A DNA stretch of 64,000 bases. Source: Escherichia coli (lineage in GTDB: Bacteria > Pseudomonadota > Gammaproteobacteria > Enterobacterales > Enterobacteriaceae). The notes beneath the pieces were generated by a model. It had not been told where the DNA came from. It was given only the letters and a program-made list of their open reading frames with translations, and ran no database searches. Of this stretch, positions 39,769 to 53,519 are shown piece by piece. The stretch is taken from the NCBI RefSeq assembly GCF_009931435.1, contig NZ_CP043414.1; one strand, written 5' to 3'. How positions within the stretch are numbered: the stretch's first letter is position 1; each line of letters opens with the position of its first letter. A program made the position numbers and the translations under genes.

Positions 39769-41382
39769 TCAATGTTTCACAATATACATAGTCCGGCTAT
39801 ACGCCACATCTTCCGGGTTATTAATGGGATAACCTTTCAGCCACGGCTTGATTAATCGTCCATTGGTATATTGATAAATTGGTGCAATCGGTGCTTGCTC
39901 CATGAGGATTTTTTCTGCCGCATTGTAATCGGCATTACGCGCTTTAACGGTATTTTCCGTTGATGCCTGGGCCAAAACTTTGTCGTAGGCCGGGTTGTTA
40001 AAACGTGAAATGTTCCCTGAATGCGTTGACGTTAATAATGTCAGGAAGGTGGAGGGTTCATTATAATCCCCCACCCACGAGGCGCGGATAACATCAAAAT
40101 TACCTGTATTACGACTATCGATATAGGTTTTCCATTCCTGATTTTGCAGTTTGACATCTACACCAAGGTTCTTTTTCCACATCGATGCCACAGCAATCGC
40201 AATTTTTTGATGGTTTTCTGAAGTATTATACAAAAGCGTCAGCTTCAGCGGTTTTTGCGGACCATAACCGGCTGCGCTCAACAAAGTTTTTGCCTGCGCA
40301 TTCAGTTCTTCCTGACTCATTTGTTCAAACGGCGAAGGCTCCGGCGTGAATCCGGCAGTAACATCTGGCGTAAAATGCCACGCTGGTTTTTCGCCCGTCC
40401 CCAACACTTTTTCGGTCATCAGGCGGCGATCTATCGTCATACTTAATGCCAGACGAACGCGCTGATCTGCCGTCGGCCCTTTTTGCGTGTTAAACGCATA
40501 ATAATAGGTCCCGAGCTGCGGCGGTGTATAAACCTGCCCCGGAATATCCTTCAACAGCTTCTGATACATATTTTTTGGGAAGGATTCGGTGATATCAATA
40601 TCCCCCGCAAGATAACGCTTAGTGGCTGCGGATTCCTGATTAATTGGCAGGAAGGTCACTTTTTGCAACACCGTTTTGGCGTTATCCCAATAATGAGTAT
40701 TTGGCACCACGACCAGTTTTTCATTGACTACACGCTCTTTAAGAACATAAGCGCCATTGCCGACCAGATTTCCGGGTTTCGTCCACTCTTTCCCGCTTTC
40801 TACGTTAGCTTTTTGCACCGGGAAGAAGGCAAAATTGGCTGTTAAATTCACAAACCATGGCAACGGTTTATCAAGCTGGATTTTCAAAGTACGGGCATCA
40901 ACCGCGGTGACGCCTAGCTGATCAGGCGTAGCTTTACCATCAATAATCGCCTGTGCGTTGTTGATTCCCGCCAGCGCGGCAAACCAGGCAAACGGCGACA
41001 ACGTTTTTGGGTCAACCAGACGTTGCCAGCTGTAGACAAAATCCTGTGCCGTTACCGGTGTGCCATCCGCCCATTTTGCGTTATCGCGCAGGGTGAAAGT
41101 CCAGATACGGTTGTCATTACTTTTCCACTGAGTCGCAACGCCGGGGACAATCTCCCCTTTCTCGTTCTGATTCACCAGTCCTTCAAAAAGATCGCGAATG
41201 ACCTGAATCTCTGGCAGACCCACGGCTTTAGCGGGATCCAGCGACGCAGGCTCATCTTTAATATGGCGCACCAGCTCCTGCTTCTCTGCCAGTACTGTGC
41301 CGCTCGGAACTTCTGCAGCATACGAAAGAGAAATGCTGCTGACCAACAGCGCACAACACGTGACTGAAACAGAGTGCTTCAT
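39769..41382 (-). CDS. mppA: Periplasmic murein tripeptide-binding protein MppA (ABC substrate-binding family 5)
   Basis: 537-aa ORF, signal peptide MKHSVSVTCCALLVSSISLSYA, OppA-like solute-binding protein. Confidence 0.95.
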   Translation of the reverse strand: MKHSVSVTCCALLVSSISLSYAAEVPSGTVLAEKQELVRHIKDEPASLDPAKAVGLPEIQVIRDLFEGLVNQNEKGEIVPGVATQWKSNDNRIWTFTLRDNAKWADGTPVTAQDFVYSWQRLVDPKTLSPFAWFAALAGINNAQAIIDGKATPDQLGVTAVDARTLKIQLDKPLPWFVNLTANFAFFPVQKANVESGKEWTKPGNLVGNGAYVLKERVVNEKLVVVPNTHYWDNAKTVLQKVTFLPINQESAATKRYLAGDIDITESFPKNMYQKLLKDIPGQVYTPPQLGTYYYAFNTQKGPTADQRVRLALSMTIDRRLMTEKVLGTGEKPAWHFTPDVTAGFTPEPSPFEQMSQEELNAQAKTLLSAAGYGPQKPLKLTLLYNTSENHQKIAIAVASMWKKNLGVDVKLQNQEWKTYIDSRNTGNFDVIRASWVGDYNEPSTFLTLLTSTHSGNISRFNNPAYDKVLAQASTENTVKARNADYNAAEKILMEQAPIAPIYQYTNGRLIKPWLKGYPINNPEDVAYSRTMYIVKH

Positions 41383-41564
41383 AAGTTACCCTCAAACCTG
41401 CGTTAATAATCATGCGTAATTATTTGTTTCGCCTTAAAGAAATGCAAACAACTTCCGGCAAAAAAGTGATACAAGATCGATAACATAGCGTTGAAGAAAA
41501 GGATTTGATAATCCGCAAAATTTGCACAACACTGCCTGTAATACTTCCTGAACCAGAGACGATC

Positions 41565-42293
41565 ATGACCGTAACTCGCCCACGCGCCGAACGCGGCGCA
41601 TTTCCGCCCGGTACAGAACATTACGGACGTTCATTATTGGGCGCGCCTTTGATCTGGTTTCCGGCCCCAGCCGCCAGTCACGAAAGTGGTTTGATTCTGG
41701 CTGGCACCCACGGTGATGAAAACTCTTCGGTCGTGACCCTCTCCTGTGCTTTGCGGACATTGACACCTTCTTTGCGCCGCCATCATGTGGTGCTGTGTGT
41801 GAATCCTGACGGCTGCCAGTTAGGGTTACGGGCCAATGCTAATGGCGTGGATTTAAATAGAAACTTTCCGGCAGCAAACTGGAAGGAAGGTGAAACGGTT
41901 TATCGCTGGAACAGCGCCGCTGAAGAACGTGATGTCGTTTTACTGACAGGTGACAAACCTGGCTCCGAACCTGAAACTCAGGCGCTGTGCCAGCTTATAC
42001 ATCGCATTCAACCTGCCTGGGTGGTCTCATTCCACGATCCACTGGCCTGTATTGAAGACCCCAGACACAGCGAATTAGGTGAATGGCTGGCCCAGGCGTT
42101 TGAATTGCCACTGGTCACCAGCGTCGGTTATGAAACGCCTGGCTCTTTCGGCAGTTGGTGTGCGGATCTCAACCTGCATTGCATCACCGCAGAGTTTCCG
42201 CCCATCTCCTCCGACGAAGCCAGCGAAAAATACCTCTTTGCGATGGCTAACTTGCTGCGCTGGCATCCTAAAGATGCAATGCGCCCGTCGTGA
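41565..42293 (+). CDS. mpaA: Murein peptide amidase A (M14 zinc carboxypeptidase-like)
   Basis: About 242 aa from MTVTRPRAERG. HxxE zinc motif (AGTHGDENSS). The track ORF is extended 20 codons upstream. Confidence 0.9.
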   Translation: MTVTRPRAERGAFPPGTEHYGRSLLGAPLIWFPAPAASHESGLILAGTHGDENSSVVTLSCALRTLTPSLRRHHVVLCVNPDGCQLGLRANANGVDLNRNFPAANWKEGETVYRWNSAAEERDVVLLTGDKPGSEPETQALCQLIHRIQPAWVVSFHDPLACIEDPRHSELGEWLAQAFELPLVTSVGYETPGSFGSWCADLNLHCITAEFPPISSDEASEKYLFAMANLLRWHPKDAMRPS

Positions 42294-43233
42294 ATTGAAG
42301 CGCCGGTTCCACATCTACCGCCAGCCAGGTCGGTCCGTCAAGATCAGCAAAACTGACCTGCGGCACCAGCGGTAAAGCGGCGCTAATGGCACGAGAGGTA
42401 CACAACATGCAGCCCAGCATCAGACTGAAACCTTGTGCACGCGCTTCGGTCGCCAGCGCCAGCGCCTCCGTCAGGCCACCCGTTTTATCGAGCTTGATGT
42501 TAACCATCTCATAGCGCCCTTGCAGCGCCTTCAGATTGCTACGGGTATGACAACTTTCATCAGCACAAATCGGTAACGGATGAATAAAATTCTCCAGTGC
42601 CGCATCGTCCTGCGCAGGAAGCGGTTGTTCAAGCATCGCAACGCCTAAATCCGCGAGCAGTTGGCAACGCGCCGCCAACCCTTCTGCACGCCAGGATTCA
42701 TTTGCATCAACGATAAGCGTCGCGTCGGGCACAGCCGTGCGAATTGCTACCATCCGCTCACTGATAAGATGGTTATCCAGCTTCACTTTCAGCAATTTCG
42801 CGCCTGCCTGCCACAGTGTTGATGCACTATTGGCCATCTGATCAGGCGTACCGATGACTACCGTCTGGGCAGTGGTGACTGTCTCGGGAAGCGTTATGCC
42901 GATCAAATCAGCCAGCGATTGCTGCTGTTTTCGCGCCGCCAGATCCCACAATGCACAATCCAGCGCATTACGTGCTGCGCCGGCAGGGAGAATTTTTTGC
43001 AACTCCTCCCGTGTCAGCCCTTTCTCTAATTGCGGCACGACGCTCATAATTTGCGCCATTACCGAGGCATCACTTTCTCCATAACGCGGATACGGCGTGC
43101 ATTCACCGGTGCCTTTAATACCTTCTTCTTCCAGTTCAACCACCACCACGCGCGCTTCACTACGACTTCCCCGAGCAATCACAAACGGGGTATGTAAGGG
43201 CCAGGCTTCCTCAAATACCTTAACGGTTCTCAT
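42268..43233 (-). CDS. ycjG: L-Ala-D/L-Glu epimerase (enolase superfamily)
   Basis: 321 aa from MRTVKVFEEAWPLHTPFVIARG. Enolase-superfamily KxK and metal-binding Asp/Glu residues. 3' end overlaps mpaA by 26 nt (convergent). Confidence 0.92.
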   Translation of the reverse strand: MRTVKVFEEAWPLHTPFVIARGSRSEARVVVVELEEEGIKGTGECTPYPRYGESDASVMAQIMSVVPQLEKGLTREELQKILPAGAARNALDCALWDLAARKQQQSLADLIGITLPETVTTAQTVVIGTPDQMANSASTLWQAGAKLLKVKLDNHLISERMVAIRTAVPDATLIVDANESWRAEGLAARCQLLADLGVAMLEQPLPAQDDAALENFIHPLPICADESCHTRSNLKALQGRYEMVNIKLDKTGGLTEALALATEARAQGFSLMLGCMLCTSRAISAALPLVPQVSFADLDGPTWLAVDVEPALQFTTGALHL

Positions 43234-43351
43234 CTTTACTCCTTGTTGTCGCGGTGGTCTGCGGATTAAGCGCAAATAGCGTTTGCTGTGTTATTGACAG
43301 TTAGCATAAACTAGGTGTGACGTTAACTATATGTAAACAGGAAAGATAATC

Positions 43352-43855
43352 ATGTCACAAACCGTTCATTTCCAGGGCAACCCGGTTACAGTCGCCAATT
43401 CCATCCCGCAGGCGGGTAGCAAAGCGCAGACTTTTACTCTCGTGGCAAAAGATCTGTCTGACGTCACCCTCGGTCAGTTTGCGGGTAAACGCAAAGTGCT
43501 GAACATTTTCCCGAGTATTGATACCGGTGTTTGCGCCGCATCAGTACGTAAGTTTAACCAACTGGCAACCGAGATCGACAACACCGTTGTGCTGTGTATC
43601 TCTGCCGATCTTCCGTTCGCCCAGTCTCGTTTCTGCGGCGCAGAAGGTCTGAACAACGTTATCACCCTCTCCACTTTCCGTAACGCTGAATTCCTGCAAG
43701 CCTACGGTGTGGCAATTGCTGATGGCCCACTGAAAGGTCTGGCAGCGCGTGCCGTTGTGGTTATTGATGAAAATGACAATGTGATTTTCAGCCAGCTGGT
43801 GGATGAAATCACCACCGAGCCGGATTACGAAGCAGCTCTGGCTGTACTGCGCTAA
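43352..43855 (+). CDS. tpx: Thiol peroxidase Tpx (atypical 2-Cys peroxiredoxin)
   Basis: 167-aa ORF. Peroxidatic Cys in [10 protein letters not shown], resolving Cys in LCISADLPF. Confidence 0.97.
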
Positions 43856-43863
43856 ACAACTGT

Positions 43864-43901
43864 GCCGTTCACTGAATCACCACCGGTGAACGGCAGTTTT
43901 T
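43864..43901 (+). terminator. Rho-independent terminator after tpx
   Basis: Stem gccgttcac / gtgaacggc followed by agttttt. Confidence 0.8.
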
Positions 43902-44008
43902 GATCTACCAGTCCCACTATTTTCCAGAGTTCCTGCCACTATTCCCCCTAACCGTTGTGCATTAAGATTGCTCTTTGCCATTATTAGCCCAGCGGAGTGA
44001 TGACTATT

Positions 44009-46051
44009 ATGGATGATAAACAAATTACGGTCTGGCTTAAACACAATTGCTGTTCAACGGACATTCCTGCCATTGCCGAGGCACTAACGAACCATGCAGA
44101 ATGGCTTTTAGAGCTAGCGCCAGATCCTATTGATCAAGGTAGTTCATGCTTACCGCCGGCAGCTGCAGCTGGTATTTTTCTTGGCGCAGCGGCGATGGTT
44201 CACTGCGGCGAGGCCAGTGGTGCAGAAACCTGGCTCGAAGCAGCCATTACTGATTACCATTTCTTTAATCCAAACGGATATAGTTCATGGAGAGGCAGTA
44301 CGCCTGTTTTTACAGCAATATCGCGTTACCCGGCATTAAAAATGGTGTTATTTAACGCCGCTTGCGCAATGGAAGACTGGAATAAAGCATCCGCTGTTCT
44401 TGAATCGCTTTTCAATGCCAGCGATGTCCCGAAAGATAACCCTGTCGCCCCCAATTTTACCCCTTATGCGCTGAAAGATATTATCGCGGATAACCTCCCG
44501 TTAGGGCCTGCTTATTATGATGAAACCTGGTTGCTGGCAAAACAAGCGTGGTTAATTAATGCGGGCGTTCTGGATGAGCGAACATGCAATACCTGGAAGC
44601 AATATACCCGCCATTTGCGCCATTTGATCCACAATGCACAGTTTTCCGATGCGATCTCTTTTGTACGCAGTAAAAAAGAACCATTAAATCATATCCATAC
44701 CTACTCAGACTTTTATCTCTATGCGATTGGTTTATTTTCTTCTACTGATCAGCTAAGTGAAGCGCTAACCTGGGTAAAACAATTAATCCGCAACAATGAT
44801 GGTCATTTCCATGATCTTTTCGTTTCAACTGGCGCAAAGCGCCGCATAAAGCCTGAACTTAGTACCTTGCTGAATAATCTCTTGCACAGCGCAGAGTTTC
44901 AGGCGTTGCAGGATAAATATCTCACCGTCGGACATGATGTTGTGCATTCTGGTCCCTTCATGTCACTTTATGAAAAGGTTCTTGGCGGTAAGTCCCGAAA
45001 GCGCTGCGCGATTAGTCGAAAATTAATCTCGCCCGGCGAAGCGGTTTATGAATATCGTCAGCTGGATAGTGTGGAATATATTGCAGCGAAAGCGGCCTTT
45101 CAGACATCTGAGCTAAATAATATCGCCCACCGGCATCATAATGATAGTTATCAGTGGCATGAATTTGCCGCCCAATGGCCTCGTCGGGGTTCACTTTCTC
45201 ACCCAGATATTGCCCGTTATTTGTTTGAGCGCCAGGAAGGAAAATGCTTTGATGCCGCAGAGTTTATACCACTGATTGCGGAACCGTTTGTCTTTCCGAT
45301 GCGTTTCATATGGGTTGCCGGGTTGTCCTTTGAATTACATCAGTATCCGGATGCCTATTTCGTAAATGACAATATGGCGGGTGAATTTGTTAATCTCTGC
45401 TGGATGGCTATGAAATGCGGACATGCTGGCGACATTTTCAAACAACTGGCCCACGAGCCGCATGACGTTGCTGACCCTATTTACGCCATGCTCGCCACGT
45501 TTGACCGCTCTGATTGCCGTAGCGCCGCCGCCGCGCACTTTGGACAACCGGAACTACCGGAAATAATGGCACTGGCTTTCAGTTCGAGGTTATCGCTCGA
45601 CAGCGTACTTACCATCGCTGAGTTTGGTAAAAATCAGCCGCGATTTTCACATGCGCTAGCAACGGCCCTCCTGCGTTACAACCTGCACATCTACTCAAAC
45701 TATATGCCGCAGGTTAACTGGTACCTTCAGGGGCTGGAACACTATGCTTTGGCAAAAGGCGGTCAACTTTTAAATTTCTTTGTGCATATTCCAGAACAAA
45801 TTCCCGTTCTGGCGACCATGCTGGAACATGGCGTATTAGTGCGTGGGATCGGTGAAGGTGCCTATGATGGTTATGATAATTCAGCAAATTCATTTCATCA
45901 TGCCGCCGTGATGCACTGCCTTGAGCACGCGCCGGAAAAAGTCCGCTACTGGATGGAAACACCCTGGATTCAGAACTATTTAGTGAATGCGCCGCTGCGT
46001 CAAACGGCGCGCCATGTGGAAGCCTGGCATAAAAAGTTTGGCATCAAATGA
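44009..46051 (+). CDS. Hypothetical protein of about 680 aa, no recognisable domain; accessory gene in the tpx-tyrR spacer
   Basis: Uninterrupted 2-kb ORF. SD ggag at 43994-43997, 11 nt before ATG 44009 (MDDKQITVWLKHNCC...); in-frame GTG 43997 and ATG 44000 are alternative starts. No signal peptide, no obvious TM segments, no Walker/HTH/nuclease motif that I can identify. Rare codons AGA and CTA occur in frame. Confidence 0.75.
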   Translation: MDDKQITVWLKHNCCSTDIPAIAEALTNHAEWLLELAPDPIDQGSSCLPPAAAAGIFLGAAAMVHCGEASGAETWLEAAITDYHFFNPNGYSSWRGSTPVFTAISRYPALKMVLFNAACAMEDWNKASAVLESLFNASDVPKDNPVAPNFTPYALKDIIADNLPLGPAYYDETWLLAKQAWLINAGVLDERTCNTWKQYTRHLRHLIHNAQFSDAISFVRSKKEPLNHIHTYSDFYLYAIGLFSSTDQLSEALTWVKQLIRNNDGHFHDLFVSTGAKRRIKPELSTLLNNLLHSAEFQALQDKYLTVGHDVVHSGPFMSLYEKVLGGKSRKRCAISRKLISPGEAVYEYRQLDSVEYIAAKAAFQTSELNNIAHRHHNDSYQWHEFAAQWPRRGSLSHPDIARYLFERQEGKCFDAAEFIPLIAEPFVFPMRFIWVAGLSFELHQYPDAYFVNDNMAGEFVNLCWMAMKCGHAGDIFKQLAHEPHDVADPIYAMLATFDRSDCRSAAAAHFGQPELPEIMALAFSSRLSLDSVLTIAEFGKNQPRFSHALATALLRYNLHIYSNYMPQVNWYLQGLEHYALAKGGQLLNFFVHIPEQIPVLATMLEHGVLVRGIGEGAYDGYDNSANSFHHAAVMHCLEHAPEKVRYWMETPWIQNYLVNAPLRQTARHVEAWHKKFGIK

Positions 46052-46060
46052 ACGTTGCCG

Positions 46061-46079
46061 CTGCGCCTGAACGGCGCAG
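46061..46079. terminator. GC-rich hairpin between convergent stops of the hypothetical ORF and tyrR
   Basis: ctgcgcc-tgaac-ggcgcag (7-bp GC stem). No adjacent T-run, so function as a terminator is uncertain. Confidence 0.35.
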
Positions 46080-46088
46080 CCAGCACAA

Positions 46089-47630
46089 TCACTCTTCGCT
46101 TTTCTTCTGGTTTAAGCCATATTCCCGCAACTTATTGGCAATCGCGGTATGCGAAACGCCGAGACGTTTTGCCAGTTTGCGCGTGCTGGGATAATTGCGA
46201 TAAAGCTGAGTTAATACCGAGCGTTCAAAACGGCTGGTAATTTCGTCCAGCGAACCTTCCATCGCATCTTCGCCCACGGCTACCGTTGCGGCGTCATAAT
46301 CCGGCAACAAAATATCCTGAGGACGCAGCTCATAGCCGTCCAGTTGTGTCAGTGCGCGATAGATAGCGTTCTTTAACTGCCGCACATTTCCCGGCCACGC
46401 ATAACGCGTAAGTACAGTATTCAGGTCAGCGGCCAGTTTCGGACGCGGCACGCCCTGCTCGTCGGCAAAGCGAGCGACGAACAGCTCAGTTAACGGCATG
46501 ATGTCCTGCGGACAGTCACGTAACGGCGGTAGATTGAGCGTCAACACGTTCAGACGATAATAGAGATCTTCACGGAAAACGCCTTTTTGCACCAGTTCGA
46601 CTAAATTCTTCTGCGTAGCGCAAATCACCCTTACATCGACATGCACTTCATGATCTTCACCAACTCGACGGAAAGTGCCATCATTAAGGAAACGCAGTAA
46701 TTTCGCCTGCATCCTTGGCGACATCTCGCCTATCTCATCTAACAGCACCGAACCACCGTTCGCCTGCTCAAAGAACCCTTTTTTACCTTCCGGAGCATGA
46801 CCAAACAGTTCACTCTCGACCGCATCTTCCGGTATAGACGCGCAGTTCAGCGCCAGGTAAGGTTTGCCCGCTCGTGGGCTTGCCTGATGGCAGGCGTAGG
46901 CAAAGAGATCTTTACCTGTACCGGTGTCACCCGTAATCAGCAACGGCGCGCTTAGCATCGCCAGTTTCTGCGCCTGTTCGACAACATGCTTCATTTTCGG
47001 GCTGACGGCGACAATTTGACTGAAGGCACTGACGTCCTGTGCAGCGACATTCTGCAACTGACGGCCCATACGAATCGTCGAGCGCAACATCACCACCGCA
47101 CCGGTCAGAACGTGTTGATCATTTTCATCCTGAAGATAAACAGGCGTAATCTCCATCAGGAAATTCTGCCCATTAATAACGACATGCTCGTTATGCGAGT
47201 CTTGCGGTTCGCTTTCCAGCCAGCGTAAAAAATTAAAGCCGTTAATTAATTGCGCGGCGGTATGGTTGCGCAGGCGATCCAATTTTTGCCCAAAAAGCTG
47301 ACAGCTCGCCGGGTTCGCCATATCCACTTTGCTTTTCATATCAACAGAAAGCACAGGCTCAGGCAACGCCTCCAGTAACGCGCTCAACGCCAGATGCTCA
47401 CGTTCGGAAGGCATCCACGGAACAGTGCGCACATCGGTAACACCTGCAATACGGCGTATTTCGGCCATCAGACTGCTGAAACTTTCAAATTCCAGTTCGG
47501 CAAAATTGAGGTAGATTCGCCCAATGGGGTCAATCTCAATACCGCGTAAATCAATGCCTCTCAGCACCAGTAGATCGAGTAATTCGCGGGTCAGACCAAG
47601 TCGGTCTTCACAAAAGACTTCCAGACGCAT
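46089..47630 (-). CDS. tyrR: Transcriptional regulator TyrR (ACT-PAS-sigma54-type AAA+ - HTH)
   Basis: 513 aa from MRLEVFCEDRLGLTRELLDLLVLRGIDLRGIEIDP. AAA+ Walker A (GDTGTGKD). C-terminal HTH. The track ORF is extended 9 codons upstream. Confidence 0.96.
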   Translation of the reverse strand: MRLEVFCEDRLGLTRELLDLLVLRGIDLRGIEIDPIGRIYLNFAELEFESFSSLMAEIRRIAGVTDVRTVPWMPSEREHLALSALLEALPEPVLSVDMKSKVDMANPASCQLFGQKLDRLRNHTAAQLINGFNFLRWLESEPQDSHNEHVVINGQNFLMEITPVYLQDENDQHVLTGAVVMLRSTIRMGRQLQNVAAQDVSAFSQIVAVSPKMKHVVEQAQKLAMLSAPLLITGDTGTGKDLFAYACHQASPRAGKPYLALNCASIPEDAVESELFGHAPEGKKGFFEQANGGSVLLDEIGEMSPRMQAKLLRFLNDGTFRRVGEDHEVHVDVRVICATQKNLVELVQKGVFREDLYYRLNVLTLNLPPLRDCPQDIMPLTELFVARFADEQGVPRPKLAADLNTVLTRYAWPGNVRQLKNAIYRALTQLDGYELRPQDILLPDYDAATVAVGEDAMEGSLDEITSRFERSVLTQLYRNYPSTRKLAKRLGVSHTAIANKLREYGLNQKKSEE

Positions 47631-47700
47631 GGGAACCTTCACCTGAAAAAAGAACAATTAATATGATGATATGACACTATTTGGATAGCAGGAAGGTTTC

Positions 47701-47718
47701 TGTCAACAATCATTGACA
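47701..47718. promoter_or_regulatory. TyrR-box-like palindrome in the tyrR promoter region
   Basis: TGTCAA-N6-TTGACA, one mismatch per half-site from the TGTAAA-N6-TTTACA consensus, about 70 bp upstream of the tyrR start. Confidence 0.35.
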
Positions 47719-47777
47719 CAAAGACGGAAAAACGGGCACTTCGGCGTAAAGATATCCGGTCAGCACCCGATATTGCA

Positions 47778-48839
47778 TTATTTTTCGCTGGGCGTTTTGC
47801 CTTTTTGCAGCGTCTCTTTCACCTGACCGATAAGCTGACGACGGAAATCCCCGAGGCGAGGTTTGTCATCGTCAATCCACGGCAGCGGGCGGCAAAGCTC
47901 CATAGCTTTAATCCCCAGTCGTGCCGTCAGAAGTCCAGCACCAATCCCCTGAGCTGCCCGGGTAGACAAACGCGCAGCGAGATCTTGCGACATCCAGTCC
48001 ATCCCCACTTCGCGCACCAATTCGCTGGCTCCGGCAAAAGCGATATTCAGCAATACCAGCTTAAACAGGCGCAAACGGCTGTAATATCCCAGTTCAATGC
48101 CATACAGCGTGGCGATGCGATTGATCAAACGCAGATTGCGCCAGGCGATAAATGCCATATCCACCAGCGCCAGCGGGCTAACGGCGATCATTAACGTTGA
48201 TTCCGCCGCTGAGCGACTGATTTCGCGCCGCGCCTGGGCATCTAAAACCGGCTGGACCAGATGAGCATACAGGCTGACCACTTCACGATCGTTCTGCGTT
48301 TCATGGATTGAGGCATACCAGCGTTGCAGTGCCGGATGCGACTGGTCGATGCCCGCCTGCTGCGCCAGTTTTTCGCAGAATGCACGGCCTTTACCCGTGC
48401 CGTGACTGTGCAACAAATCGCGCGCTTCGTCGCGTTCATGGGCGCGCTGTCGCAAGCGCCATAAGCGCCGCCACTCTGTTACCACTGAACCTACGCCAGC
48501 GCCGATAATCAATGCCCCAGCGGCACATCCACCCAGCGCTACCCAATCCTGAGTTTGCCAGGCATTCATCGTCCACTGCACGCCCTGCCCGACAACGCTT
48601 GCACCAAACAGAGCCAACCCGCCCATCACCATTTTGCGCCACAGGCTGCGTTTCGGACGTAACGCTGCGTCCATCACCGCTTCAACTTGCCCCTCTTCTT
48701 CCTGCGCTTCGTCGAGCGTGGCCGGGGCAAAATTTTGCGCCTGATTTTCGTCAAAGGTCTGCTGCGCCCTGAATTTTGGATTCTGATCGACCTCCAGTGG
48801 ACCGTCGAAATCAATACGTGGTTTTAACGGTTCGGTCAT
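47778..48839 (-). CDS. ycjF: YcjF, inner-membrane protein of unknown function (UPF0283/DUF697)
   Basis: 353-aa ORF with central hydrophobic helices. Start overlaps the ycjX stop by 4 nt. Confidence 0.9.
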
Positions 48840-50233
48840 CGCAATTTATCTCCTATTAAAAATTCCAGCGCAGCATCAAGACGAATATGCGGCAGCGGTT
48901 TGTCGACATCCATCACCTGCGGACGAAACGCCTCAAACTGGAAGCCTTGCTTATCCCAGAACGCCTGACCAGGCAAACGTGCGGGAACTTCGCCAGGATA
49001 AACAGTGAGCGGTGCACCATCACTGAGTCGATTACCGCGCAGCGCCGGGATTTTCTCACCGTTAACATCAATAATGCCGCTGGTGGTCGCCTGAACTGAC
49101 GCCAGCCCCAGGCAGTCCATACTGATCCCTTCGAACGCCGCATTTTGCCAGGCATCCTGAATCAGTTGTTGCAGTAATGAAACCATATTGGCGTGCTGAT
49201 CGATGGTCACATGGTCTGCTTTAGTGGCAGCAAACAATAGCTTATCGATAACCGGCGAAAACAAACGCCGGAACAGGGTTCGCTGCCCGTAGTGGAAACT
49301 TTGCATCAGCTGCGTCAGCGCCAGACGCATATCATTAAATGCCTGTGGCCCACTGTTGAGCGGTTGCAGGCAGTCCACCAGCACAATCTGCCGATCAAAA
49401 CGCAGGAAGTGATTTTTATAGAACCCCTTCACCACTTTCTCGCAGTAATAATTAAATCGTTCGCGCAGCATTCCGGCATTGGTGTGCTTGTCGGCCTGTG
49501 CAAGTTTTGATTCGCCCCAGGCATCGACATCGGGCCACGGGAAGAATTGCAGCGCGGGCGCACCTGCCATATCGCCCGGCAAGACAAAACGTCCAGGCTG
49601 AATAAAGTGCAGCCCCTGCTGTTTGCAGTGGTGGAGATAATCGGTCCATGCGGCAGCAATGTCTGCAAGACGGTTTTCGTCGGCAGGTGCTAGTGGGTCC
49701 AGCCCTTCGCACATCATTCGCCATTTTGCCGACCATTCGCCGCGCTGACCATTGAGTAAGCCCGTCATCTGGCGCGACCAGCTTAAATAGTCCTGCGCCA
49801 ACATCGGCAAGTCGAGTAACCATTCGCCAGGATAATCCACTATCTCCAGATACAACGTGGAAGTGTCTTTGAAGTGACGCAACAGCGAATCGTTCGATTT
49901 ATAGCGTAGCGCCAGGCGAATCTCACTGACGCCGCGTGTTGGGGTCGGCCAGGCGGGAGGATCGCCATATAACTGCGCCAGCCCTTCATCGTAGGTGAAG
50001 CGTGGAATGCCAAAGTCACGCTGGGGAATGCGTTTTACGCCCAGCAGGCGCTCTTCACGCACCGCACTTAATAGCGGCAAGCGTGCTCCGGCATGAATAT
50101 TGAGCAACTGATTGACCATCGCAGTGATAAACGCGGTTTTGCCGCTGCGGCTAAGTCCGGTTACAGCGAGGCGCAGATGTCTGTCGACACCCCGATTCAC
50201 CAGCGCATTAAGTTCATTTTTAAGTCGCTTCAT
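48836..50233 (-). CDS. ycjX: YcjX, conserved P-loop NTPase of unknown function (DUF463)
   Basis: 465 aa from [39 protein letters not shown] (Walker A GLSRSGKT). The track ORF is extended 29 codons upstream. Confidence 0.9.
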
Positions 50234-50377
50234 TGCTGTCCTGTGGACCAGAAAAAAATCATTCGTAAGGATATGAATGTGGGGGCCATGCCCTTGATTA
50301 TCAACTGCCCGTGTTGTCATCTTGAGGCGAACTCCATAAGATGTGCAGCATTCACGTTCGGACGGAGTTCCTGACCT

Positions 50378-51376
50378 ATGTCCCCTACTATTTATGATAT
50401 TGCCAGGGTTGCCGGCGTATCAAAATCCACCGTATCACGCGTGCTGAATAAGCAAACCAATATCTCCCCGGAAGCGCGCGAAAAAGTGTTACGGGCCATT
50501 GAAGAATTACAGTATCAGCCAAATAAACTGGCCCGCGCGCTGACCTCTTCGGGCTTTGATGCCATTATGGTGATTTCTACCCGCTCGACCAAAACTACGG
50601 CGGGTAACCCGTTTTTCTCCGAAGTTTTGCATGCCATTACCGCCAAAGCGGAAGATGAGGGTTTCGACGTGATATTGCAGACGTCGCACAACCCAGCTGA
50701 AGACTTACAAAAATGTGAAAGCAAAATTAAGCAGAAAATGATTAAAGGCATTATTATGCTAAGTTCGCCAGCAGATGAGTCTTTTTTCGCCCAACTCGAT
50801 AAATACGATATTCCGGTGGTAGTAATTGGCAAAGTTGAAGGTGAATATGCCCATGTTTATTCTGTCGATACCGATAATTTTGGCGACAGTATTGCGCTGA
50901 CCGATGCATTAATTGAAAGTGGACATAAAAATATTGCCTGCCTACATGCTCCGCTTGATGTCCATGTTTCGGTTGACCGCGTTAATGGTTATAAGCAAAG
51001 TCTGGAAGATCATAATATTGCAGTGCGCAATGAGTGGATCGTTGACGGCGGTTATACCCATGAGACAGCACTGCAAGCCGCGCGGGAATTATTAAGCCAG
51101 TCACCGTTGCCTGAGGCAGTGTTTGCTACTGACAGCCTGAAATTAATGAGCATTTATCGTGCGGCGGCAGAGAAAAACATTGCTATTCCGCAGCAGTTAG
51201 CGGTGGTGGGTTATAGTAATGAAACGCTGTCGTTTATATTAACGCCTGCACCGGGCGGCATCGATGTTCCGACGCAGGAGTTAGGTCAACAAAGCTGCGA
51301 GTTATTATTCCGCTTAATTGCCGGAAAACCGTCACCACAAAATATTACCGTTGCCACGCATATGTCGTTGAAATAA
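50378..51376 (+). CDS. ycjW: LacI-family transcriptional repressor YcjW
   Basis: 332-aa ORF. N-terminal LacI HTH ([21 protein letters not shown]), periplasmic-binding-protein-like effector domain. Confidence 0.93.
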
Positions 51377-51394
51377 ATGCCAGCTACGTTGCCT

Positions 51395-51478
51395 GAATGC
51401 CGGATGCGATGCTGGCGCATCTTATCCGGCCTACATTTATAAACCGGATAAAGTACTCGCGCCGCATCCGGCAATTTA
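51395..51478. repeat. REP elements (BIME-like pair)
   Basis: gcctgaatgccggatgcgatgctggcgcatcttatccggcctaca followed by ccggataaagtactcgcgccgcatccggca, between ycjW and ompG. Confidence 0.8.
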
Positions 51479-51486
51479 GCACATTA

Positions 51487-52392
51487 TCAGAACGCGTAAT
51501 TCACACCGACACCTGCATAATGGAATTTATCGCTGTCGCCTTCATCGTGATCCTGCCACTCAAACGCGTATTCCAGCGAAACGGAAAGACCATTCTGGAA
51601 ATCATAACCGTAAAACAAACCAAGACGGTTAAAATCATGGCCTTCACGTTCGATATCATCCTGCCAGTCCCAGTTACTCCAGCGATCCAACCCAATGCGC
51701 GTATACGGTGTTACCGAGTGATTGCCGAGCGTCAGCGGTAAATAGGCGCGAATTTCTTGCGTGGAGAATTCACCGTTATTGCGGCTGTCGTCCATATTGA
51801 AGCCGCGCTCGAGATAATAGTTCACTCGCAAGGCAACCGTTTCGTTGAAGGTATATTGCAGACCCGTTTCCGTTTCGACACGGGTATCAGCATAACCGGT
51901 TGTATTCAGATCGTTGGCAAATTTATACATCGACAGCCATCCGTTGAAACGTAAATCGTCAGTCAGTTTCACGTCCCAGTCTGGCGCGATTTTCCAGCGC
52001 TGCATATTTGCCGTGTCTTTACCCGGTTCATCAACGTAGTGATAACCATAGTTACGGAAACCACCGGTCAGGCCGAAACTGAAATCATCGCTTTCGAGAA
52101 ACTGATAATGCACTTCCAGTTCCGGGCGATCAAACCAGGTTCCACGTTTACCCGCGCTATAATCTACCGGCCCTTCCTGGTAATAAGCCAGCGATATTCT
52201 CCACGGCCCATTGGCAGCATTAAAATAGACGGAAGGCTCCGCCAGCCCGTCCATATCTTCGCCATAACCCTCGACGTTTTCTATTTCGTACATCGCGCCG
52301 ATATTAAAGTGCCAGTCGTTTTTTTCCTCAGCCTGTGCGCAGGCCATTCCCGCACACATCACCAGTGCGGTACAGGGTAATAACTTTTTCAT
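51487..52392 (-). CDS. ompG: Outer membrane porin OmpG (monomeric 14-strand beta-barrel)
   Basis: 301-aa ORF, signal peptide MKKLLPCTALVMCAGMACAQA, C-terminal ...VNYAF. Confidence 0.95.
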   Translation of the reverse strand: MKKLLPCTALVMCAGMACAQAEEKNDWHFNIGAMYEIENVEGYGEDMDGLAEPSVYFNAANGPWRISLAYYQEGPVDYSAGKRGTWFDRPELEVHYQFLESDDFSFGLTGGFRNYGYHYVDEPGKDTANMQRWKIAPDWDVKLTDDLRFNGWLSMYKFANDLNTTGYADTRVETETGLQYTFNETVALRVNYYLERGFNMDDSRNNGEFSTQEIRAYLPLTLGNHSVTPYTRIGLDRWSNWDWQDDIEREGHDFNRLGLFYGYDFQNGLSVSLEYAFEWQDHDEGDSDKFHYAGVGVNYAF

Positions 52393-52436
52393 TATTGTTC
52401 CTTGTATTATCCTGGGGGAATGCCTTCCCCCTGTAT

Positions 52437-53519
52437 TTAGCGAATTGCTATTTCCGTTTCTGCATCAAAGAAATGACATTTGGTCATATCGAAATGAATA
52501 GTGACGTTTTCTCCTGCATGATAATCATTTAACGCACCAGCACGGACCACTAACTCGTGCCCCCCAACCGTGGTGTAGAGCATAAATTCCGCACCGGTTA
52601 ATTCTGCCACGCTAATTTTGGCGGAAATGTTATTTTCCTCTTGCGCATCCGGATGAATATCTTCCGGGCGTATTCCCATCACGATGGGCTTATGCAAGCT
52701 TTCCTGCGTTTTCAGAACCGCTAATTTATCTTCGGGAATGGTTAATTTAAGCGTTTCCGTAACGAATTTATCGCCATCGATCGTGCCGCGAATAAAATTC
52801 ATTGCTGGTGACCCAATAAAGCCGGCAACAAACATATTCGCCGGTTGGTTATAGACCGTTTTCGGCGCACCGACCTGCTGAACAATCCCATCCTTCATAA
52901 TGACAATCCGCGTCGCCATGGTCATCGCTTCGGTCTGATCGTGGGTCACGTAGATCATGGTGGTGTTCAGTTTCTGATGCAGCTTGCTGATTTCCGCGCG
53001 CATTTGTACGCGCAGCTTGGCATCCAGGTTAGAGAGCGGTTCATCCATCAAAAACACGCCCGCTTCGCGCACAATCGCCCGTCCGAGCGCCACACGCTGG
53101 CGTTGCCCGCCGGAAAGCGCACCCGGCTTGCGTTTCAGGTACTCACGCAGGCCAAGGATTTGCGCCGCCCAGTTAACCCGCTCATCAATCACCTCTTTGG
53201 CGATTTTTTGCATCTTCAGGCCAAACGCCATGTTGTCGTAGACCGTCATATGCGGATACAGCGCGTAGTTCTGGAACACCATCGCGATATTGCGTGCTTT
53301 GGCCGGAACGTCATTCATTCGTTTACCGTCGATCAACAGATCGCCGCCGCTGATCTCCTCAAGCCCGGCAATCATACGCAGGGTGGTCGATTTACCGCAG
53401 CCCGACGGACCGACAAACACGATGAACTCTTTATCGGCAATCTCCAGGTTGAAGTCCTTCACCACATGCACCTGGTTATCGTAGATCTTTTGAATATGTT
53501 GTAACGAAAGCTGTGCCAT
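52437..53519 (-). CDS. ycjV: ABC transporter ATP-binding protein (MalK-like), intact
   Basis: 360-aa ORF. Walker A (GPSGCGKST), ABC signature (LSGGQRQR), Walker B (FLMDEPLSNLD), C-terminal MalK-type regulatory domain. No frameshift, unlike the K-12 pseudogene. Confidence 0.92.
   Translation of the reverse strand: MAQLSLQHIQKIYDNQVHVVKDFNLEIADKEFIVFVGPSGCGKSTTLRMIAGLEEISGGDLLIDGKRMNDVPAKARNIAMVFQNYALYPHMTVYDNMAFGLKMQKIAKEVIDERVNWAAQILGLREYLKRKPGALSGGQRQRVALGRAIVREAGVFLMDEPLSNLDAKLRVQMRAEISKLHQKLNTTMIYVTHDQTEAMTMATRIVIMKDGIVQQVGAPKTVYNQPANMFVAGFIGSPAMNFIRGTIDGDKFVTETLKLTIPEDKLAVLKTQESLHKPIVMGIRPEDIHPDAQEENNISAKISVAELTGAEFMLYTTVGGHELVVRAGALNDYHAGENVTIHFDMTKCHFFDAETEIAIR

Follow-up and report, generated by a model that had tools for sequence, protein, structure and literature searches.

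A U-less GC hairpin between convergent orphan and tyrR genes arrived with an accessory insert in Escherichia coli and is a probable 3' stem-loop for both transcripts

The analysed window, a 64,000-nt stretch of E. coli contig NZ_CP043414.1 (assembly GCF_009931435.1), carries an orphan gene located between tpx and tyrR (Table 1). The orphan gene and tyrR converge on a short spacer, which reads ACGTTGCC-GCTGCGCC-TGAAC-GGCGCAGC-CAGCACAA and contains a GC-rich inverted repeat (designated here as the GC hairpin). The original prediction of convergent stop codons separated by such a hairpin was confirmed in the sequence. The distance between the two stop codons was 37 nt at all annotated occupied loci except for L071, where it amounted to 102 nt because the orphan gene was called as truncated at 658 aa.

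Table 1. Features of the tpx-orphan-tyrR locus (positions are those of the window)
Feature	Coordinates	Strand	Remarks
tpx	43352..43855	+	167 aa, ends ...VLR*
Segment without homology in empty-site genomes	43850..46088		2,239 nt in place of 52 nt
New canonical tpx intrinsic terminator	43861..43902	+	12-bp stem followed by TTTTT, preceded by AAACAA; part of the insert
Orphan ORF	44009..46051	+	680 aa from the ATG used in RefSeq; mechanical ORF from GTG at 43997
Orphan stop codon TGA	46049-46051	+	read from the sequence
Spacer between convergent stop codons	46052..46088		37 bp
GC hairpin	46060..46080	both strands fold	arms 46060-46067 and 46073-46080, loop 46068-46072
tyrR 3' end, antisense	46081..46500	+	likeliest candidate Rho stop zone for orphan-sense read-through
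tyrR	46089..47630	-	513 aa per annotation of related genomes; stop codon TGA at 46089-46091

The arms of the GC hairpin, GCTGCGCC and GGCGCAGC, were shown to pair perfectly over 8 bp around the 5-nt loop TGAAC; the GC stem had been correctly recognized earlier, though its length had been given as 7 bp. The hairpin occupies the centre of the spacer, with exactly 8 nt between the stem and either stop codon. The core structure has a folding energy of -15.8 kcal/mol on the plus strand and -16.7 kcal/mol on the minus strand, and G-U pairs on the tyrR-sense strand lengthen the stem to ~12 bp (-22.2 kcal/mol). Folding placed its stability within the range of terminators, with z-scores of -2.75 (+) and -4.15 (-) in a 61-nt context. 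In dinucleotide shuffles, stems that pair perfectly over 8 bp or more and carry seven or more G/C in each arm have an expected frequency of 0.47 per 64 kb, and the chance of encountering such a stem in one given 37-bp spacer is ~3e-4.

When compared with the make-up of an intrinsic terminator, the GC hairpin was found to provide the stable GC stem-loop and to lack the U-tract of ~7-8 nt directly 3' of it. The tails flanking the stem read CAGCACAATCAC on the plus strand and GGCAACGTTCAT on the minus strand; no U-run adjoins the stem on either strand, and pyrimidine- or T-rich stretches start only 12 nt (+) or 7 nt (-) past the core stem. The T-tail scores (0.02 on the plus strand, 0.07-0.54 on the minus strand) bear out the earlier observation that a U-run is missing on both strands. 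The terminator behind tpx is canonical, as had been stated previously, with a T-tail score of 3.98 and a d'Aubenton-Carafa-type discriminant of +13.7; the corresponding discriminant of the GC hairpin was about -36 to -44 on both strands. Furthermore, the GC hairpin was absent from the list returned by a consensus terminator scan of the window. Lacking a U-tract, the GC hairpin is therefore not an intrinsic terminator on either strand.

The origin of the hairpin was assessed by megablast of positions 43300-46400 against 5,426 complete E. coli genomes. The full stretch was recovered in only 30 genomes; in almost all others, tpx and tyrR were matched as two pieces, spanning 914 bp compared with 3,101 bp in the window. 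Empty-site genomes (C600, strain 105 and UM146) possess a 43-bp spacer with another hairpin, AATATGCCTGATGGTG-TTG-CACCATCAGGCATATT, which has a perfect 16-bp stem. This K-12-type hairpin (AATATGCCTGATGGTG/CACCATCAGGCATATT) is present in at least 4,827 E. coli genomes and has left no trace in the window. It too lacks the character of an intrinsic terminator, with discriminant values of -17 to -45. The native spacer hairpin is of the GCCTGATGG type in E. coli lacking the orphan gene, in Salmonella and in Citrobacter koseri. In Salmonella enterica and C. koseri, the tpx and tyrR genes converge as immediate neighbours, the C-terminus of Tpx is VLKA* and the spacer hairpins share a GCC(T/C)GATGG motif with that of K-12, and enterobacterial Tpx clusters consist almost entirely of 168-aa proteins. 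For these reasons, the comparison identifies the empty tpx-tyrR state as ancestral and the occupied state as a derived replacement.

The 52 nt that were replaced correspond, in K-12-type sequence, to the last two tpx codons, the stop codon and the 43-bp spacer, and the lengths agree (3101 - 914 = 2187 = 2239 - 52). At the left edge, alignment showed tpx homology to end after codon Leu-165, resulting in a Tpx protein ending in VLR* (167 aa) as opposed to VLKA* (168 aa). At the right edge, homology restarts with the stop codon of tyrR (TGA in the window, TAA in empty sites), with a linked Asn-to-Ser or Asn-to-Gly change three codons upstream. Consequently, TyrR proteins of occupied alleles terminate in KKSEE (...QKKSEE in the window) or KKGEE followed by TGA, compared with ...QKKNEE followed by TAA in K-12. 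The altered C-terminal codons are located at 43847-43855 for tpx and 46089-46102 for tyrR. The insert has a G+C content of ~0.42-0.51, compared with 0.51-0.56 for its flanks. Alignment of the tyrR 3' flank with empty-site genomes placed the GC hairpin within the inserted DNA and outside the ancestral spacer, showing that it came with a 2.2-kb insert that comprises, besides the hairpin itself, a single orphan gene and a new terminator for tpx. The hairpin had also been proposed to mark the right-hand insertion boundary; this does not hold, as non-homology extends to the tyrR stop codon and the boundary lies at ~46088-46091. We conclude that the 2.2-kb unit was horizontally acquired and took the place of the native spacer and its hairpin.

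The distribution of the hairpin followed that of the orphan gene. Intact or disrupted copies of the gene were found in 32 of the 5,426 complete genomes; a 91-nt stretch around the GC hairpin was present in exactly these 32, and the new tpx terminator was likewise found in 32. All ten distinct contexts listed for the 167-aa Tpx (29 contigs) include the orphan gene. In none of the genome data searched was the GC hairpin found without the orphan gene. A scan with GCTGCGCCTNAACGGCGCAGC against one genome for each of 100,044 species yielded five matches, all of them unrelated, and the sole match labelled as enterobacterial maps to coding sequence in high-GC DNA. Among 23 metagenomic matches to the hairpin 21-mer, only one, on an E. 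coli contig, had the same flanks; the other 21-mer matches in species genomes and metagenomes were set aside as chance occurrences in high-GC DNA, mostly within coding sequence. No second copy with up to three mismatches was detected in the 64-kb window, and an Rfam search of 43800-46300 returned no match.

Variation within the spacer was examined across the occupied alleles, which diverge by up to 6.3% in the orphan gene. The 16 stem positions were invariant in the 13 alleles read (the window, L002, L013-L022 and L032). Loop position 46069 was variable (G/T; L017 and L046), as were positions 46081 and 46086 in the 3' flank of the spacer. In 11 aligned alleles, none of the 16 stem sites and 3 of the 21 remaining spacer sites were variable, a difference without statistical power. 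No covariation or compensatory change was seen in the stem among the 13 alleles read and 11 aligned, for which an invariant stem gives no power. Stem conservation is therefore evidence neither for nor against a structural role. The hairpin was not found behind distant orphan homologues (49-58% identity) at other genomic sites, so it is not deeply conserved; one such homologue (L033) is followed by an unrelated GC hairpin.

The orphan protein could not be assigned to any NCBIfam or PADLOC family, and searches of Pfam and of PDB sequences returned nothing below E = 0.1, the best Pfam match being a weak, sub-threshold hit to TPR_19 (E = 0.12). Its AlphaFold model is all-alpha and of low confidence (pLDDT 60), and fold matches were confined to generic helical repeats, none with an E-value of 0.001 or better. 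Relatives fall into only eight clusters among 5.8 billion proteins. Those from Salmonella and other enteric bacteria (56-58% identity; L004, L005, L028, L030 and L031) lie behind hrpA or ydcY, in arrays that also contain TsiV, Tli4_C, ankyrin and DUF4034 genes; this setting suggests that the role of the family is type VI immunity-like or effector-associated. Further relatives stand alone as one-gene insertions located between malM and ubiC. The 153 nt preceding the orphan gene yielded no consensus promoter.

The orphan gene was observed to be decaying in L016, L019, L020, L063 and L069-L072, mostly Shiga-toxin-type clinical and cattle isolates, with IS600 insertions in some copies and frameshifts or truncations in others. 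The number of ATT/TAT units immediately preceding its start codon varies among alleles (43993-44011; L014-L021), and the upstream GGAG motif is deleted in L019 and L020; the spacing between ribosome-binding site and start codon is therefore polymorphic.

Outside the insert, the window differs from C600 (L061) by ~3-6% in most 200-nt bins across 40047-43250 and 46089-52800, and tpx itself by only 0-1.5%. Such flank divergence is high for E. coli core genes and may reflect a divergent lineage or a recombinant region.

Several known elements were considered for comparison. Rho-dependent transcripts of E. coli have precise steady-state 3' ends just past stable stem-loops that are devoid of U-tracts or upstream A-tracts, with rut sites located just downstream (Dar and Sorek 2018, PMC6061677). 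Such stem-loops guard against PNPase and RNase II and are followed by a mild bias of C over G (PMC6061677). The GC hairpin resembles them in being a GC stem-loop just past a stop codon, without a U-tract or upstream A-tract, and perhaps in the moderate excess of C over G that follows the stem in orphan-sense RNA. It differs from them in that a single hairpin would have to serve two converging genes, at 8 nt from each stop codon. The Liu laboratory has also described hairpins between convergent genes which look unlike intrinsic terminators and set the site of head-on polymerase collisions (Wang et al. 2022, 10.1101/2022.10.23.513370); the same paper recounts the bidirectional collision terminators of Ju et al. 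2019. The short convergent spacer, a hairpin on both strands and the lack of intrinsic-terminator appearance are common to these systems and the present locus.

The native K-12 tpx-tyrR hairpin and the GC hairpin occupy the same position relative to tyrR, are both poor in U and both score negatively on the terminator discriminant. They are nevertheless unrelated in sequence, the K-12 structure having a longer (16-bp), AT-ended stem with kin in Salmonella and Citrobacter, and being deleted in the window. Being GC-rich, palindromic, extragenic and devoid of a U-tract, and lying at the end of a gene, the GC hairpin is also reminiscent of REP elements, from which it differs in being single-copy, with no family in the window, in the 100,044 species genomes or in Rfam. 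Given one copy in the window and no related copies elsewhere, identification as a REP element or other repeated palindrome was rejected. Inspection by eye likewise rejected attC or TyrR-box readings of the palindrome, the core motifs being missing. Overall, the GC hairpin looks like a fresh instance of a known and common U-less element in E. coli.

The GC hairpin, the right-end structure of the acquired unit, is probably a U-less 3' stem-loop acting on both RNAs, and an RNA-level function is most likely in light of the properties of this class and of K-12 data for the same tyrR flank. In RNA of both directions, the hairpin would form a stable 3' stem-loop that pauses polymerase, sets the steady-state 3' end of the orphan and tyrR mRNAs and shields both from 3'-5' exonucleases. 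Polymerase would be released by Rho on the untranslated antisense RNA just downstream and/or by head-on polymerase collisions, which would hold down mutual antisense read-through; collisions would require the orphan gene to be expressed. With only 8 nt in between, a ribosome positioned at one or the other stop codon would occlude the proximal stem arm, which would favour a post-release protective role over co-translational termination.

The composition of the RNA downstream of the stem was examined on both strands. Orphan-sense RNA has a C/G ratio of 1.57 over 78 nt after the stem (87th percentile), with 30% C and 12% G in the first 40 nt, and the ratio reaches 2.0 at 46241-46318. For tyrR-sense RNA, the corresponding ratio of 1.21 (71st percentile) is marginal, rising to 2.0 some 160 nt further on.

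In K-12, DirectRNA-seq with and without bicyclomycin placed a region of Rho termination for tpx-sense transcripts at 1387858 (-), inside antisense tyrR (Rho score 19.1, p = 3.6e-30; PMC7815308 supplementary file 2). For tpx of K-12, the main 3' end in Term-seq lies at 1388306 (-), within the stop codon, immediately before the native hairpin and not beyond it (PMC7815308 supplementary files 1 and 3). The tyrR 3' sequence downstream of the orphan gene is 95.8% identical to that of C600 over 612 nt. According to the gene coordinates that we assume for K-12, which agree with the tpx entry of the published dataset, the Rho region presumably lies ~403 nt into tyrR, equivalent to approximately position 46492 of the window. 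Its location inside antisense tyrR indicates that even the native boundary leaks and relies on Rho. Antisense read-through from the orphan gene into tyrR, and the reverse, may occur at the occupied locus, as the original prediction had cautioned. It is less alarming than was implied there, because the K-12 hairpin is equally U-less and Rho already stops tpx-sense RNA.

Alternatively, the palindrome could be a functionless by-product of the history of the cassette, with transcripts reading through until stopped by Rho, which we regard as unlikely. It might have arisen, for example, as a shortened copy of the left-end hairpin or as a diverged duplicate of nearby coding sequence. The reverse complement of 46068-46079, CTGCGCCGTTCA, matches CTGTGCCGTTCA at the left end (43860-43871) in 11 of 12 positions, each within a hairpin, and an inverted match of this quality or better was obtained for only 7 of 3,000 random pairs of genomic segments (~0.2%). 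Moreover, 46057-46082 resembles a coding stretch 67 nt upstream (45990-46014; GCCGCTGCGTC-AAACGGCGC-GCCA); the score of 28 is the highest of all non-self local alignments across the 64 kb but barely exceeds background (next best 26). Covariation gave no sign of selection on the stem, as a by-product would have it. Conversely, the exact central position of the hairpin in the spacer and a perfect 8-bp GC stem that is intact in 13 of 13 alleles read, despite gene divergence of up to 6%, argue against an incidental structure. Stable U-less stem-loops at E. coli gene ends, furthermore, generally define 3' ends (PMC6061677).

On the minus strand, the stem in its extended 12-bp form, with ACGUUCAUUUGAU behind it, might act as a weak intrinsic terminator for tyrR only. 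Its folding energy of -22.2 kcal/mol and the five U residues among the first 12 nt after it speak for this proposal, yet U occupies only two of the first five positions, the T-tail score is 0.54 versus 3.98 for the canonical terminator and the discriminant is -35.6, rendering termination of this kind improbable.

It was also considered whether the end hairpins are terminal inverted repeats of a non-autonomous cassette aimed at the native palindrome, i.e. a mobility or recombination site. The 11/12 inverted match that links the two outermost ends of the segment, and the fact that the segment took the place of a REP-like palindrome, would fit such a scenario. However, no target-site duplication was found, no transposase or integrase domain was found in the single ORF, the segment ends had no other copy anywhere searched and homologous genes reside at other sites without these ends. 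The flanking codons are altered, moreover, as recombinational replacement predicts, and we consider this scenario highly improbable. The view that an ancestral tpx/tyrR terminator was kept at the right edge of the insertion, as the original prediction had allowed, has only the position beside tyrR in its favour and is almost certainly wrong, given that the GC hairpin is missing from all empty-site genomes and both outgroups, which share another hairpin, that it strictly co-occurs with the insert and that no related copy exists in the 100,044 species genomes.

A more far-reaching and quite speculative proposal is that the accessory gene constitutes a self-insulated cassette. Its terminator would shield both the gene and tyrR from the highly expressed tpx, the U-less hairpin would re-create the native collision- or Rho-type boundary in unrelated sequence, and the end hairpins would be related to each other (11/12) and reflect the building or movement of the cassette.

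The importance of the locus beyond its annotation is slight. The true extent of the accessory segment is 43850-46088, with the ends of both tpx and tyrR clipped, and a foreign boundary, likewise U-less in architecture, has taken over as a whole from the native convergent one. K-12 has the highly expressed tpx gene converging on tyrR over a leaky hairpin; in the window, the gene opposite tyrR is the orphan gene. Provided that termination at the new tpx terminator is efficient, strains with the insert should show a small regulatory difference from K-12, namely far less tpx-driven antisense RNA into tyrR.
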